From: an uncultured Eubacteriales bacterium | GTDB lineage: Bacteria > Bacillota > Clostridia > Lachnospirales > JAISER01 | Direction: 5' to 3' | Length of the DNA: 64,000 nucleotides | NCBI GenBank assembly: GCA_964500895.1 | Contig: CAZCQP010000003.1 | Location: forward strand, 35,044-99,043 | Shown here: in pieces, positions 1,987 through 63,897 of the stretch | Position numbering within the stretch: the stretch's first letter is position 1 | Layout of the letters: each line of letters opens with the position of its first letter | The notes under the pieces: model-generated | The model's database searches: none | The model's input: only the letters and a program-made list of their open reading frames with translations | Told to the model about the DNA's origin: nothing | Made by a program: the position numbers and the translations under genes

Positions 1987-3300
1987 ATGCATACTTTTTT
2001 TGAAAACATACCCGCCATCAAGTATGAGGGTAAGGACAGCACAAACCCGTTAGCATTTAAGCACTATAACCCGGAACAAATCATTATGGGCAAACCCATG
2101 AAAGAACATTTAAAGTTTGCCATGAGCTATTGGCACACCATGTGCGGCGCTGGTGGGGACCCTTTCGGCTCTCCCACGGTAGACAGAAGCTATGGGCAAG
2201 AAAACCCCATGGATATGGCCAAAGCAAAGGCAGACGCTGCCTTTGAATTTATGACCAAAATGGGCATTGAATATTTTTGTTTCCACGATGTAGACATTGC
2301 GCCGGAAGGCAACAGTTTAGAAGAATTTAAAGCCAATCTGGAAGAAATGACGGATTATATTAAGCAGCTGATGGATAAAACCGGAATCAAATTGCTGTGG
2401 GGAACGGCAAACCTGTTTTCCCACCCACGGTATATGCATGGCGCGGGAACTTCCCCTTATGCGGATGTTTTGGCCTGCGGGGCGTTTCAAATTAAAAATG
2501 CCATAGATGCCACCATTAAGCTGGGTGGTGCAGGGTATGTTTTCTGGGGCGGCCGTGAAGGTTATGAAACCCTGTTAAACACAGACATGGGGCTGGAGCT
2601 GGACAACATGGCCCGTTTAATGAAAATGGCAGTGCAGTATGGCCGTGCACAAGGGTTTAAAGGGGATTTCTACATAGAACCAAAACCAAAGGAACCCACC
2701 AAACATCAGTATGATTTTGACACGGCCACTGTTTTGGCATTCTTGCAAAAATACGGTTTAAAAGACGATTTTAAAGTGAACATAGAAGCCAACCACGCAA
2801 CCCTTGCCGGCCACACTTTCCAGCATGAGCTGGTGCTGGCCCGTGTGAATGGCATATTCGGCTCTATTGATGCCAACCAAGGCGACTACCTGCTGGGTTG
2901 GGACACAGACCAATTCCCTACCAACGTGCATGAAACCACCTTGTGTATGCTGGAAGTTTTAAAAGCAGGGGGCTTTACCAACGGCGGCCTGAACTTTGAT
3001 GCCAAGTTAAGACGGGGTTCTTTTCAGCCGGTGGACTTCTTCCACGCATACATCGGCGGGATGGATGCCTTTGCGTTGGGGCTTATCAAAGCAGCCAAGG
3101 TAATGGAAGACGGCCGTTTGAATCAATTCGTGGAAGAACGGTACAAAAGCTACCAATCCGGCATTGGCGCCAAAATTGTGGCAGGTGAAACAACTTTAGA
3201 AGAACTGGCAGCTTATGCGGCCAACATCCCAAATCCCACAGTGCAAAGTGGCGGGCAGGAGTATTTAGAAGGCGTTCTAAACCAAGTGATTTATTCTTAA
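1987..3300 (+). CDS. xylA: Xylose isomerase
   Basis: Motifs [30 protein letters not shown] and [24 protein letters not shown] lies before the ATG at 1987. Confidence 0.95.
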
Positions 3301-3318
3301 ATTAAGGGTGAATGTAAA

Positions 3319-4833
3319 GTGAAATACGTCATCGGCATAGACATTGGCACATCCGGCACAAAAACTTTGCTTGTAAGCCAAGCGGGGAAAATTGTTGCAT
3401 CGGCAAGTGCAGAATACCCTTTGTACCAGCCCCAAAACGGCTGGGCAGAGCAAGACCCTAACCACTGGTGGCAGGCCACGTGCACAACCATTCAATCTGT
3501 TTTAGTCCAGTCTGGCATAATGCCTGAAGAAATTGAAGGTATTGGTTTGTCCGGGCAAATGCACGGGCTGGTTATGCTGGATGTTAATGGTGAAGTGATT
3601 CGCCATGCCATTCTTTGGTGTGACCAGCGCACCGCCCAAGAGTGCGCAGACATTAACGGTTTGGTTGGTGAACAACGCCACGTTGAAATTGCGGCTAATC
3701 CACCCCTTACGGGTTTTACATCCCCTAAAATATTGTGGGTGCGCAAGCACGAACCAGAGCACTATGCCAAATGCCATAAAATATTGCTGCCAAAAGATTA
3801 CATCCGCTATAAGCTGACCGGGGAATTTGCCACGGAAGTGTCGGATGCTTCGGGCATGGGGCTGCTGGATGTGAAGGGCCGTTGCTGGTCTGAAGAAATA
3901 TTGGAAAAGTTGGACATAAACATCAACCTGCTGGGTAAGATGCATGAGTCTGTGGAAATTACCGGCCGGGTGACCCAACAAGCTTCCCAACAAACCGGCC
4001 TTGCAGAAGGCACGTTGGTGGCAGGTGGGGCTGGCGATAATGCAGCCGCAGCTGTAGGCACCGGCATTGTAAAAGATGGAAGGGCCTTTACGACCATTGG
4101 CACTTCCGGGGTGGTATATGCCCACACCTCCACACCCGTCATCGAATCAAAGGGGCGGATACATACGTTTTGTTCAGCTGTGCCCGGGGAATGGCATGTG
4201 ATGGGCGTCACCCAAGGGGCAGGCCTTTCCCTTCGCTGGTTGCGGGACACGGTGTGTACGGAGGAAGCGGCGGAAGCCAACATGCAGGGCACCGACCCAT
4301 ACGATGTGATGGCTAAAGAAGCAGAAACGGCACCCATTGGTGCTGAAAGTCTGGTGTTTCTGCCCTACTTAATGGGCGAGCGCACCCCCCATTTAAACCC
4401 CAACGCAAGGGGCGTGTTTTTCGGCTTGTCCCCCGTACATCATAGAAGCCACATGATTCGCAGCGTTATGGAAGGGGTTAGCTATTCACTGATGGACTGC
4501 CTGGCCTTGCTCAAAGAAATGGACATTGTCTGCAACGACATGACCATTTGCGGTGGGGGAGGGCGTAGCGCCTTCTGGTGCCAAATGCTGGCAGATATTT
4601 TTGGCAGCCCGGTGAAAACACTGCAAAGCGCAGAAGGCCCGGCTTTAGGTGTGGCCATTCTGGCAGGGGTTGGCGCCGGTTGGTTTCAAACCGTGGAAGA
4701 AGGTTGCCAACAGTTTTTGGCTACGAAAAAAAGCTATGAACCCCAAAACGAAAACAAACCGGCTTACGATAAGTATTATGACATTTATAAAAACCTTTAC
4801 AAAGATTTGGCCACACGGTTTAACGATTTGTAA
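3319..4833 (+). CDS. xylB: Xylulokinase (FGGY family, GTG start)
   Basis: YVIGIDIGTSGTKTLL, GLSGQMHGLV, GGAGDNAAAAVGTG. Immediately downstream of xylA. Confidence 0.9.
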   Translation: MKYVIGIDIGTSGTKTLLVSQAGKIVASASAEYPLYQPQNGWAEQDPNHWWQATCTTIQSVLVQSGIMPEEIEGIGLSGQMHGLVMLDVNGEVIRHAILWCDQRTAQECADINGLVGEQRHVEIAANPPLTGFTSPKILWVRKHEPEHYAKCHKILLPKDYIRYKLTGEFATEVSDASGMGLLDVKGRCWSEEILEKLDININLLGKMHESVEITGRVTQQASQQTGLAEGTLVAGGAGDNAAAAVGTGIVKDGRAFTTIGTSGVVYAHTSTPVIESKGRIHTFCSAVPGEWHVMGVTQGAGLSLRWLRDTVCTEEAAEANMQGTDPYDVMAKEAETAPIGAESLVFLPYLMGERTPHLNPNARGVFFGLSPVHHRSHMIRSVMEGVSYSLMDCLALLKEMDIVCNDMTICGGGGRSAFWCQMLADIFGSPVKTLQSAEGPALGVAILAGVGAGWFQTVEEGCQQFLATKKSYEPQNENKPAYDKYYDIYKNLYKDLATRFNDL

Positions 4834-41933: not shown

Positions 41934-42048
41934 TTGAAAACTTATATTGAAGAAAGAGCCGTGGAAGTGGCAAATTTTATTATTAAAAACGATGCAACCG
42001 TCCGTGAGACAGCCAAAAAATTTGGCATTAGCAAATCTACTGTACATA
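41934..42048 (+). pseudogene. spoIIID: spoIIID, 5' part of a split gene (38 codons with the HTH; TTG start)
   Basis: LKTYIEERAVEVANFIIKNDATVRETAKKFGISKSTVH after RBS AAGGAGGGG. It then reads MDVI-stop (42060..42062) instead of the conserved KDVTERL. Confidence 0.85.
42044..42048. other. attL core of element 2 (ACATA, repeated at 63729..63733)
   Basis: This is the only sequence shared at the two spoIIID break points, and it is in the same codon phase. Confidence 0.7.
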
Positions 42049-42282
42049 TGGATGTCATATAAAAGAACGTTTCTTAGGTGTGAGGTATTTAAGCAAATGA
42101 TGGTGTGGGCGTTGCACAAAAAAAAATGGTGTTTTTTACGACCATATTTTATTGTAACAACCCAATTTAATAAATAAAACATTTTTGTTTTTGGTTTGTT
42201 TTTTTTAATAAATTTTTGGTTTGGGGTGTAAAAAAAAAATTGGGTTTTGTTTTACCAAATTTTTTTAGTGGAACGCCCACTT

Positions 42283-42450
42283 TTAAGTAAGAACGCCTTT
42301 TTGCTTTTCTTCTGTGTTTATACTGCGCTCGACAGACTCGGCAAGCCTTGTCCGTACCAGTTCTGCGCAAATTTTTATCAGCTCGTCAACCACCTGATGC
42401 ACCGGGTTCGGGTTATGAAAGGTTATGTGCAGGTGTTGCGGCTTTTTCAA
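42283..42450 (-). CDS. Small element-end protein (55 aa, TTG start), candidate directionality factor or regulator
   Basis: Hand translation: LKKPQHLHITFHNPNPVHQVVDELIKICAELVRTRLAESVERSINTEEKQKGVLT after AAAGGGGG. Same position, orientation and pattern as 424..624. Confidence 0.4.
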   Translation of the reverse strand: MKKPQHLHITFHNPNPVHQVVDELIKICAELVRTRLAESVERSINTEEKQKGVLT

Positions 42451-61305: not shown

Positions 61306-61340
61306 ATGTAATAAAAGAGATAGGGGTACAGAAAGTTTCA

Positions 61341-61420
61341 AAAGATTGGAGTAGAAAACCTTTGAGTTGCCGTAAATGATTGTGGCAATCAATCAAAAAG
61401 GAGCAATATCCGATGGCTAA
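61341..61420 (+). repeat. Left arm of an ~80 bp imperfect inverted repeat
   Basis: Aligns with the reverse complement of 62076..62155. Identical blocks are GGAGTAGAAAACC, AAATGATTGTG and ATATCCGATGGCTAA, with roughly four-fifths identity overall by eye. Confidence 0.85.
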
Positions 61421-62075
61421 GAAACTGAATAACACAGATAGCTATTGCAGCGAGCGACAAGATTACCAAGTAGGCCTTTTGGACAATGTTTAACCAAGTT
61501 TGGTTGGTAGCGGGTACGGGCACTACCGAGGCCTGGCTGACCATTTGGCAGGATAGTATCCAAAGAGGTTTACAAAGGTAATAAAGGTACTCTTGGAAGG
61601 GTGTGGAGGAACTCTCACGCCTCTAGAGATTTCAGGAATATTATCCCTACCAATTGCTGCCATTAAGAATATCTACCCATAAAATGGAATAGGTGTATTC
61701 GATTTCGGAAGCACGTTCATCAAGTTCACTGGCCATACTGCTTGCCTGGCTGCAGGGATACCCCGGCTTACTAACGCTTCTTGAATAACCCTGTACCAAG
61801 GCCGTTTCACTACGCTTAAGGTTGCTGATAAAGACCGGAGCATATCCGATCTTACGTACCTTCGGTACCATGGGTTATACAGTACCCGAACGAGTATTGC
61901 ACCTACAGGGATGATATCCGAGTCGGTAGCTTATGACCTGAGTTGTACTCCAATTTATCGGAAAAAGTTCTGCTTTTATCAACTGTTCTCTTAGCCACTT
62001 GAGTATGGAAAGCATCTGATCATGATTGCTTAGCACTGCAGTAATAATTCTGTCAATTTGTGTTGTTTTATTTTT

Positions 62076-62155
62076 TAGCCATCGGATATAGCTCCCTTTT
62101 GATGATTGTCACAATCATTTTATGGAGCACCGATGGTTTTCTACTCCCATCCTTT
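62076..62155 (-). repeat. Right arm of the inverted repeat (overlaps the recombinase leader)
   Basis: See the left arm. The arms bracket a 655 bp core (61421..62075) with no convincing ORF. Confidence 0.85.
62102..62118. promoter_or_regulatory. Perfect 8+1+8 palindrome ATGATTGT-C-ACAATCAT (operator-like), overlapping a weak TTGATG-N16-TATGGA promoter-like pattern facing the recombinase gene
   Basis: Read directly, ~80 nt upstream of the recombinase ATG. The copy in the left arm (61377..61394) is degenerate. Confidence 0.35.
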
Positions 62156-62198
62156 TTGCAATTTATGCTACTCTATCAAAGAAAACAAGGGTGATGCT

Positions 62199-63734
62199 AT
62201 GCGAACCGTTGCGTATTGCCGTGTTTCTACAAGTAAAGATGAACAATTAGACAGTTTAGCAGCACAGCAAAGGTTTTTTACGGAGTATTCAGAAAAGAAC
62301 AATTATCATTTAGTCCAAATATATGCCGATGAGGGTAAGAGTGGAACGAAGCTTAAAAACCGCACACAGCTTCTGAAGCTTTTGGCAGATGCTAAAAAGC
62401 AAATGTTTGATATTGTGCTTATCAAAGACGTTTCGCGGCTTGCCAGAAACACTGTTGACTTTTTGACGAGCATACGTGCGCTCAAGGCATTAGGGGTTAA
62501 GGTTGTATTTGTGAATTACGACCAAACCGATTCAGACAGTTCGGAATTTATGCTTACATTGCTTTCAGCAATTGCGCAGGAGGAATCAGCAAACACATCA
62601 AAGCGTGTGAAGTTTGGAAAGAAGATGAACGCCGAAAAAGGGCGTGTTCCTAACATTGTATACGGATACAACAAGCAAGTTGGGGACTACTTTAGCCTAG
62701 AAATTAACGAGCCCGAAGCACAGGTTGTTAGGGACATCTTTGATATGTATGTTAATGAAAATTTTGGAGCAAATAAAATAGCCATGACATTAAACGCTAA
62801 AGGGTATAAAACAAAACGTGGCTGTAAGTGGACGCAAAATGCCATTGCAAGGATTTTGGCCAACCAAATTTACATAGGCCGGGTTATCAATGGCAAGGAA
62901 GAAGTGGAGGATTTTCTAACAGGCAAGCGAAAAGAGAAAAATCAGCATGAATGGATTATAACCGAAAATGAAGCGCTGCGCATTATACCAGATGAGCTGT
63001 TTGATAAGGCTCAAAAAACATTAGCGCAAAGAACCCAAACTTTTAATATAACAGGGGAACGTAATTCAGACAAGCATGTTTTCAGCAAGCTTATCAAATG
63101 TTCTTGTTGTCATTCGTCATTCAGGCAATCCGTTAGAACATATAAAAATACATACACCAAGTGGGTATGCACAGGGCGCAATGCCAAAGGAGCTGGGTTT
63201 TGTATCAATAAAACTGTTATTGATGAAGCTCAACTTTTAGAAGCAATTAAAGCATACTTTGTTGAGCTGTTAATGCAGAAACCCAGCTTTATTAAAAGTA
63301 AAATTAATCAACTCAATAGACTTTATCAATCGAAAGATGAAAACGTGCAATCGGAAAAGACCCTCATGCGTGAAAGAAACCGACTAAATAAACTGAAACA
63401 AAAACAAATTGAGATGTATGAAGCCGACATCATCAGCCTTGATGCATTAAAAGAACGCACACAAGAACTGGATGCACACCTTGTAAGCGTGGATGAGCAG
63501 CTGCATATGATTCAAATGAATGTGAGCAAAAGTGATATGTTTAAAAATGCATTAATGGAAACCTTTTGCGACATAGAGAATGGGTTGAAAGCCGAGCATT
63601 TCACCAATGCCATGCTAAACAGGGTGATAGAGAAAATAACCGTAGACGAAAACGGCAAAATTGATGTGTACCTACGTTTATTAAGTGACATCGGTATGGA
63701 AAATAGCGTTCTATTAAGCAACGACCAAACATAA
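62199..63734 (+). CDS. Large serine recombinase (element 2, SpoIVCA/CisA-like)
   Basis: VAYCRVSTSKDEQ catalytic Ser, IKDVSRLARN, recombinase domain, Cys cluster (CSCCHS...C...C) and a long C-terminal coiled coil. The start is taken at MRTVAY after AAGGG. The stop TAA overlaps the attR core. Confidence 0.9.
   Translation: MRTVAYCRVSTSKDEQLDSLAAQQRFFTEYSEKNNYHLVQIYADEGKSGTKLKNRTQLLKLLADAKKQMFDIVLIKDVSRLARNTVDFLTSIRALKALGVKVVFVNYDQTDSDSSEFMLTLLSAIAQEESANTSKRVKFGKKMNAEKGRVPNIVYGYNKQVGDYFSLEINEPEAQVVRDIFDMYVNENFGANKIAMTLNAKGYKTKRGCKWTQNAIARILANQIYIGRVINGKEEVEDFLTGKRKEKNQHEWIITENEALRIIPDELFDKAQKTLAQRTQTFNITGERNSDKHVFSKLIKCSCCHSSFRQSVRTYKNTYTKWVCTGRNAKGAGFCINKTVIDEAQLLEAIKAYFVELLMQKPSFIKSKINQLNRLYQSKDENVQSEKTLMRERNRLNKLKQKQIEMYEADIISLDALKERTQELDAHLVSVDEQLHMIQMNVSKSDMFKNALMETFCDIENGLKAEHFTNAMLNRVIEKITVDENGKIDVYLRLLSDIGMENSVLLSNDQT
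63729..63733. other. attR core of element 2 (ACATA)
   Basis: Matches 42044..42048. Confidence 0.7.
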
Positions 63735-63897
63735 AGATGTTACAGAACGATTGATTAAAATTAACCCCAAATTGGCAGGCGAAGCACGCAGAGTGCTGGA
63801 AGTGAACAAATCCCAGCGCCATATTCGTGGAGGGCTGGCTACGAAAGAAAAATACATGACGCTGCCGGGAAGCATTGGGTTGAAAAAACTGAAATAG
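63733..63897 (+). pseudogene. spoIIID: spoIIID, 3' part of the split gene (54 codons)
   Basis: KDVTERLIKINPKLAGEARRVLEVNKSQRHIRGGLATKEKY... is the conserved SpoIIID C-terminal region. It is in phase with 41934..42047 across ACATA, giving a 92-codon ORF. Confidence 0.85.

Follow-up and report, generated by a model that had tools for sequence, protein, structure and literature searches.

A long inverted repeat beside the recombinase gene of a spoIIID-splitting element is probably the remnant of decayed IS256-family insertion sequences

Insertion sequences (IS) of the IS256 family have one transposase ORF, terminal inverted repeats of ~31 bp and 8-bp duplications (PMC7780238). In the transposase of one member, ISCth4, residues 1 to 165 make up the dimerisation and DNA-binding domains, which lie ahead of the catalytic domain (PMC7780238). 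MITEs and foldback derivatives are short and non-coding, and are bounded by the termini of the parent IS in inverted orientation. An inverted repeat around a few hundred base pairs beside a recombinase gene is also the arrangement found in the Hin/Gin-type, fim and Clostridioides difficile RecV switches. On a larger scale, skin with SpoIVCA, SPbeta with SprA, and gin in gerE are elements that split a mother-cell gene and carry a large serine recombinase at one end (PMC4191935, PMC5595907).

Here, we analyzed a stretch of DNA of 64,000 nucleotides (the window), in which spoIIID is split in the same manner into a 5' half (41943-42056) and a 3' half (63721-63855), the latter resuming after the stop codon of a recombinase gene near 63737. 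The label "spoIIID-element recombinase" given to this gene in the initial annotation proved apt, as the recombinase lies at the right end of the ~21.7-kb element that interrupts spoIIID. Besides a GGDEF protein, the cargo of the element (42057-63737) includes a set of rhamnose-polysaccharide genes: a family-2 glycosyltransferase, an RfbA-like nucleotidyl transferase, an ABC-2 exporter pair, an epimerase, a pyruvyl transferase, two RgpF proteins of rhamnan synthesis, an MBOAT acyltransferase and RfbC/D/B, with the serine recombinase last. No phage genes were seen in the ~21.7 kb, and a limited literature check found no earlier description of an element interrupting spoIIID. The two junctions of the element have GATGT in common (ACATATGGATGTcata / aaaGATGTTACAGAA).

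An inverted-repeat pair around an ORF-poor core had been noted just upstream of the recombinase gene, and an invertible switch, a long structured RNA and a scar from duplication of the divergent promoter region of the recombinase gene had been offered as explanations. From sequence comparisons, we consider it likely, with a probability of about 0.88, that the 859 bp from 61319 to 62177 are a decayed IS256-family remnant. Set against skin, SPbeta and gin-type elements, such a remnant would be an insertion into the element, lying outside its recombination machinery. The features of the region, with copy A and copy B denoting the two IS copies of which parts appear to be left, are as follows.

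61319 to 61439, plus strand: left arm of the repeat, which is the left end of IS copy A (terminal repeat, leader, RBS, ATG and ~9 codons).
61413 to 61493, plus strand: 26-codon ORF MAKKLNNTDSYCSERQDYQVGLLDNV, read as a transposase start with unrelated sequence beyond a breakpoint near 61440.
61527 to 61655, plus strand: tentative trace of transposase residues ~288-330 of copy A (Smith-Waterman, family HMM and shuffles).
61665 to 62082, minus strand: transposase pseudogene of copy B, N-terminal ~166 codons (profiles, tblastn, HMMER and family HMM).
62056 to 62177, minus strand: right arm of the repeat, which is the left end of IS copy B (terminal repeat, leader, RBS, ATG and first codons).
62178 to 62198, plus strand: spacer of 21 nt between the IS terminus and the recombinase ATG, containing the recombinase RBS AAGGGTGAT.
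62199 to 63734, plus strand: intact large serine recombinase of 511 aa (Pfam Resolvase, Recombinase and Zn_ribbon_recom), outside the IS.

In a blastn comparison of 61306-62198 with the whole 64-kb window, 61340-61439 and 62155-62056 formed a pair with 79.2% identity across 101 columns (E 3e-17), and a repeat finder recovered the same arms in three pieces. In a gapped local alignment, the similarity continued outward, more weakly, to about 61319 and 62177, with an inward limit at 61439 and 62056. Over this full length (61319-61439 and 62056-62177) the pairwise identity of the arms is 77.5%, the longest identical run common to both is 15 bp, and indels are present. Much of what had been described for the repeat was reproduced: the 80-nt arms, claimed to be about four-fifths identical, agree at 68 of 80 positions; the three blocks of identity were located at 61348/62135, 61374/62110 and 61406/62075 (to within one base); the inward-facing RBS-N9-ATGGCTAA modules are present as AAAGGAG-N9-ATG on the plus strand (61397-61415) and as AAGGGAG-N9-ATG on the minus strand (62098-62080); and translation gave both peptides that had been named, MAKKLNNTDSYCSERQDYQVGLLDNV from the left arm and MAKK-stop from the right arm. 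Its placement needed adjusting, since the right arm begins at 62075, one base to the left of where it had been put, and the repeat is longer than the 80 bp claimed, reaching outward and inward to the limits given above. Deep extension of the inverted repeat into the core had no significance. No further copy of the arms or core was found by blastn within the window, and the region (61306-62198) gave no blastn match in phage and plasmid collections.

An intact IS of ~1.34 kb is carried by a viral-contig locus (L117, positions 1068-2407), and its transposase, tn117, was translated from it. The terminal inverted repeats of this IS are only ~27 bp long (GATAGAGTACAATAAAGTTTGCAATTT vs GGTAGTGTCAATAGAAGTTTGCAATTT) and its ends are otherwise unrelated, which argues that an inverted repeat of >100 bp is not native to such elements. 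When the left arm and the reverse complement of the right arm were aligned with the left end of L117, the three sequences became similar at one and the same GATAG and stayed so across the leader, the RBS and the ATG into the first codons; the flanks are unrelated. Because homology starts exactly at GATAG in the three sequences, the termini of the remnant are placed at 61319 and 62177, and both arms are IS left ends. The left arm, 68% identical to the L117 left end, opens with a terminal inverted repeat whose first bases are GATAGGGGTAC; a leader of ~95 nt follows, with the RBS AAAGGAG at 61397-61403 and an ATG at 61413. The right arm, 72% identical to the same end, has in the reverse complement a terminal repeat (GATAGAGTAGC...), a leader, the RBS AAGGGAG at 62098-62092 and an ATG at 62082, followed after a frameshift by MAKK-stop. 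As to the duplication scar proposed earlier, a neutral scar was the closest of the three options, with the correction that the duplicated unit is an IS left end; it is not the divergent promoter region of the recombinase gene, as the arms are homologous to the left ends of intact IS copies elsewhere.

A search pattern made of the positions that do not vary among the two arms and the left end of L117 recovered the L117 contig from the viral collection and, from metagenomes, two further IS copies whose left ends are built alike (L127 and L128). In L117 and L128, leader, RBS and start are arranged as in the remnant. In blastn, 61790-62178 paired with L117 1483-1067 (E 2e-25), with comparable matches to L127 and L128; the left-side match, in which 61385-61439 paired with L117 1146-1200 and 61343-61360 was also recovered, was weaker. 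An additional metagenome match, L126, was rejected as an IS copy, being a chance match in an unrelated leader. Within the 64-kb window there is no intact copy of this IS. In L128 (3214-3720, Ga0326728_10004582), the transposase frame stops ~138 codons in and the sequence beyond looks unrelated, and given this early end of the frame L128 would be an independent, N-terminal-only remnant of the same IS lineage.

The 655-bp core between the arms had been described as holding only unrecognisable ORFs, and when these short ORFs were searched singly against Pfam there was indeed no match. Six-frame translation showed that a minus-strand frame is open from ~62110 to 61647 apart from a single TAA, and a transposase signal emerged once the longest minus-strand frame was joined across its stop. 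The joined frame matched PHROG 2331 "transposase" (E 5e-4), Pfam PF00872 Transposase_mut (Mutator family; E 1.3e-3, 18.2 bits vs a cut-off of 21) and NCBIfam NF033543 "IS256 family transposase" (E 0.035, 13 bits vs a cut-off of 150), so that three independent profile libraries match it over one and the same stretch of residues. Scores below the cut-offs of the curated profiles are what would be expected from the broken third of a gene. By tblastn, the joined frame matched 395 plasmid records (best E 6e-7), and among the 15 of these matches listed, every one with an annotated feature is an IS256 family transposase. An exhaustive HMMER search of 1.84 billion representatives found 68 relatives, the best with E 3.9e-13 at 44% identity, and a full-length relative (P0126) is an IS256-family transposase according to the annotation of its homologues. 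The minus strand of the core is therefore recognizable as an IS256/Mutator transposase pseudogene: residues 4-167 of tn117 (395 aa) align over 62075-61665 with 39% identity over 164 aa (E 6e-24 against the whole window), and an HMM built from ten relatives matches copy B with E 4e-24.

The start of the pseudogene was placed by its N-terminal residues. The relatives begin with MAHKKNNTNLTELLLQC..., MAQKQDSTNF... and MAKREDTTYF..., and three different frames of the right arm give MAKK-stop-NNTN, LTELLLQC and ...DQMLSILKWLREQL..., respectively; since these three-frame peptides correspond to the N-termini of the relatives, the right-arm ATG is taken as the transposase start. The gene is damaged: two or more frameshifts fall within 62082-62030, its first ~20 codons contain stops, and the TAA lies at 61875-61877. 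Similarity to the relatives gives out near residue 166 of ~395, at about their WVDALYEK motif, and this break-off point is close to the domain boundary at residue 165 of ISCth4. The right arm also contains a perfect 15-bp palindrome, TGATTGTCACAATCA, at 62103-62117, just upstream of the transposase RBS. Its left-arm counterpart at 61377-61391, TGATTGTGGCAATCA, is imperfect, and the related IS in L117 is without it; the palindrome may be a leader hairpin or an operator particular to this IS lineage.

Copy A, on the plus strand, is less complete. At its start, a coding remnant of ~9 transposase codons is left (MAKKLNNTD), resembling the starts MAHKKNNTN and MAQKQNNTN of relatives, and the homology of the left arm to both the right arm and L117 stops near 61439. 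The 26-codon ORF that begins here had no family match in profile searches, and we read it as a transposase start fused past a deletion breakpoint and not as an independent gene. Between 61440 and 61665, the sole signal is on the plus strand at 61527-61655, leaving ~87 nt (61440-61526) without an assignable signal. For 61527-61655, the Smith-Waterman score against the transposase was 56 (shuffles: mean 26, sd 4, maximum 46), the family HMM of ten relatives gave E 0.008, and 0 of 400 DNA shuffles matched the real HMM score. As standard tblastn misses this trace, we rate it as probable and short of shown that it represents residues ~288-330 of copy A, internally deleted and 3'-truncated. If the trace is real, copy A was once a whole plus-strand IS that now lacks codons ~10-287 and its 3' end. 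Weak tblastn hints of a second, tandem or direct N-terminal copy on the minus strand (61467-61645) were supported neither at the DNA level nor by Smith-Waterman tests, and this candidate was dropped.

The remnant thus combines family traits with features foreign to intact members. It resembles IS256-family elements (IS256, ISCth4 and ISEae1; PF00872, NF033543) in the N-terminal region of the transposase, and at both termini it shares homology with the left terminal repeat of the L117 relative. Assignment to the Mutator/IS256-type DDE transposases comes through the N-terminal ~166 codons, for which the curated profile scores are below their cut-offs. In contrast to a complete transposase ORF with a catalytic domain, only ~40% of one transposase gene is left, with frameshifts and stops. 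Intact members have a left and a right terminal inverted repeat of about 24-41 bp; the remnant has two left ends and no right end, and its termini match the left end of the relative over >100 nt, compared with native repeats of ~27-31 bp (PMC7780238 and L117). Nor is there a clear equivalent of the 8-9 bp target-site duplication: the flanking octamers, ATAAAAGA (61311-61318) and AAAGAAAA (62178-62185), are identical at 5 of 8 positions and A-rich.

These pieces could have been left by the following events. Two copies of one IS would have landed in convergent orientation just upstream of the recombinase gene. A deletion from ~residue 331 of copy A to residue 167 of copy B would then have removed both 3' parts together with the right ends, and a further deletion would have taken most of copy A, leaving copy B with its first ~166 transposase codons and copy A with ~9 codons and, probably, a short piece of its C-terminal half. 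We infer that two convergent copies followed by deletions is the most economical history; the order of events and the lack of a function are what the surviving parts suggest. Neither inversion nor autonomous movement would be expected of the remnant, because there is no intact transposase and no right end, and the arms have at most 15 identical bases in a row. Homologous recombination is generally efficient only over longer identical stretches. A role as a dedicated RNA would likewise not be expected. Two IS256-family left ends and a transposase pseudogene would be the useful annotation here, and the eye-catching long inverted repeat beside a recombinase, readable as a switch or a large RNA, would be insertion-sequence debris.

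The same termini could have arisen from a single non-autonomous foldback or MITE-like IS derivative, in which the two left ends were pre-built and the whole was inserted as one unit by a transposase acting in trans. We regard this main alternative as unlikely, although both termini are proper IS ends starting GATAG, the parent-IS termini are inverted without a transposase between them as in such derivatives, and the unit would be only 859 bp long with no working transposase. The AAAGA / AAAGA on either side could be what is left of a duplication, but the candidate duplication agrees at 5 of 8 positions in register and is of low complexity. MITEs and foldback derivatives differ further in that neither multiple copies nor mobility were seen here in the window or the scanned contigs, and neither the window nor viral contigs nor the metagenome contigs recovered with the left-end pattern contained a second left-end/left-end copy. 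The arms differ by 21-22%, and the interior consists of two different, opposed transposase gene fragments; on these two grounds, two decayed copies fit better than one designed unit.

With decayed IS copies as the preferred reading, the recombinase gene itself lies wholly outside the remnant. The gene-caller form (P0001) is 533 aa long and starts at an ATG at 62133, so that its first part (62133-62198) begins inside the right arm. Alignments with relatives begin at the ATG at 62199, which is preceded by its own RBS, and the 511-aa form is thus the likely product. Among 5.8 billion proteins, the full-length relatives of the recombinase are at best 63-66% identical. Comparison of the region across related elements had been suggested as a way to tell covariation from inversion; the region is absent from them, with no homologue of the arms or core at 84 loci of recombinase relatives (genome and viral collections) or on the contigs of the 63-66% relatives. 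A viral scan for ATATCCGATGGCTAA gave 28 matches, all confined to the seed, and these were dismissed as chance. In the three closest relatives whose upstream sequence was read directly, a sigma-70-like TTGACx-17-TATAxT lies 40-60 nt upstream of the recombinase gene, an interval that is occupied by the IS remnant in the window. A scan with the sigma-70 consensus found no sigma-70-like promoter on the plus strand of 61686-62198. The recombinase ORF is intact despite this. Had the arms been identical at insertion, their 21% divergence would imply long residence, and an unexpressed gene would by then be expected to have decayed. The gene is therefore probably transcribed, either from inside the right arm or by transcripts that run on from the rfb genes across the hairpin.

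This setting raises the question of whether the remnant was co-opted, with the right arm serving as a promoter or leader, perhaps at the time of sporulation, or with an imperfect hairpin of ~100 bp in rfb read-through transcripts gating the recombinase, through processing or by blocking expression, and so tuning excision. An IS end 21 nt from the ATG of an intact three-domain recombinase, at the interval that holds the promoter in relatives and with no sigma-70-like site on the plus strand, is consistent with such a role, as is the folding of the whole interval into a long helix (z -11). However, the arrangement is unique and hence has no comparative support, the stability of the helix simply follows from the repeat, and the mismatches and indels of the arms bear no sign of compensation. 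Co-option therefore seems to us quite improbable, and debris of two decayed copies is preferred for this interval as well.

An invertible DNA switch, in which recombination between the arms would flip the core and change expression beside the recombinase, was the first of the options in the initial annotation, and we give it hardly any credence. The inverted repeat does adjoin a serine recombinase gene, as in the Hin/Gin, fim and RecV switches, but those systems differ from the remnant in several respects. In place of short, near-identical repeats with a crossover site, the repeats are long, degenerate and IS-derived, being 79% identical with indels and a longest identical run of 15 bp. The core holds transposase fragments, with no internal promoter and no alternative gene or coding segments; its one weak promoter-like match (9/12) is no more than was obtained with shuffles. 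The recombinase next to the repeat is a large serine integrase that acts at the spoIIID junctions, and these junctions are without similarity to the arms. Nothing comparable was present in the recombinase relatives, either at the 84 loci or in the closest ones.

The third option, a large structured non-coding RNA closed by the long helix, had in its favor a core G+C of 45-50% against 33-39% around it and a very low folding energy of the whole interval (z -11 and -7.9 vs shuffles), but it is just as hard to credit, for the Rfam check gave no match up to E 1 apart from two snoRNA chance matches in the region (E 0.3-0.6), and the core aligns as protein with transposases, its homologues being protein-coding. 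With Rfam 15, nothing reached the gathering score in the whole window, and neither a described family nor stability beyond composition with covariation was found. The core alone (61470-62030) folds no better than shuffles (z -1.37 on the plus strand and -0.72 on the minus strand), and the stability of the whole interval is thus due entirely to the repeat; the raised G+C of the core fits foreign coding sequence, given its alignment with transposases.

The element around the remnants also differs in gene order from related loci. At 56 of the 84 loci of relatives, the recombinase gene is preceded on its own strand by a small ORF with the motif LHITFHNPN, and in 32 it is within 400 nt (examples are L115 3209-3382 and L113 about 3300-3460). 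In the window, the homologue of this ORF (42298-42447, minus strand) is at the opposite end of the element, 19.7 kb from the recombinase gene, and the IS remnants are located at the recombinase-side boundary of the apparent rearrangement. From this arrangement, the element looks rearranged, possibly via inversion of its cargo; on the improbable co-option reading, activity of this IS might also account for the apparent inversion by which the LHITFHNPN ORF came to the far end. The debris takes up the place at which relatives of the recombinase carry the promoter and, for the most part, a small conserved gene, which makes the expression of the recombinase, and the excision that would restore spoIIID, a point of minor biological interest. 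At the far end, the sequence of ~230 bp that separates the 5' half of spoIIID from the small ORF (42060-42290) is of low complexity, with A/T runs and repeated TTTGGTTT and GGGTTTTG motifs.
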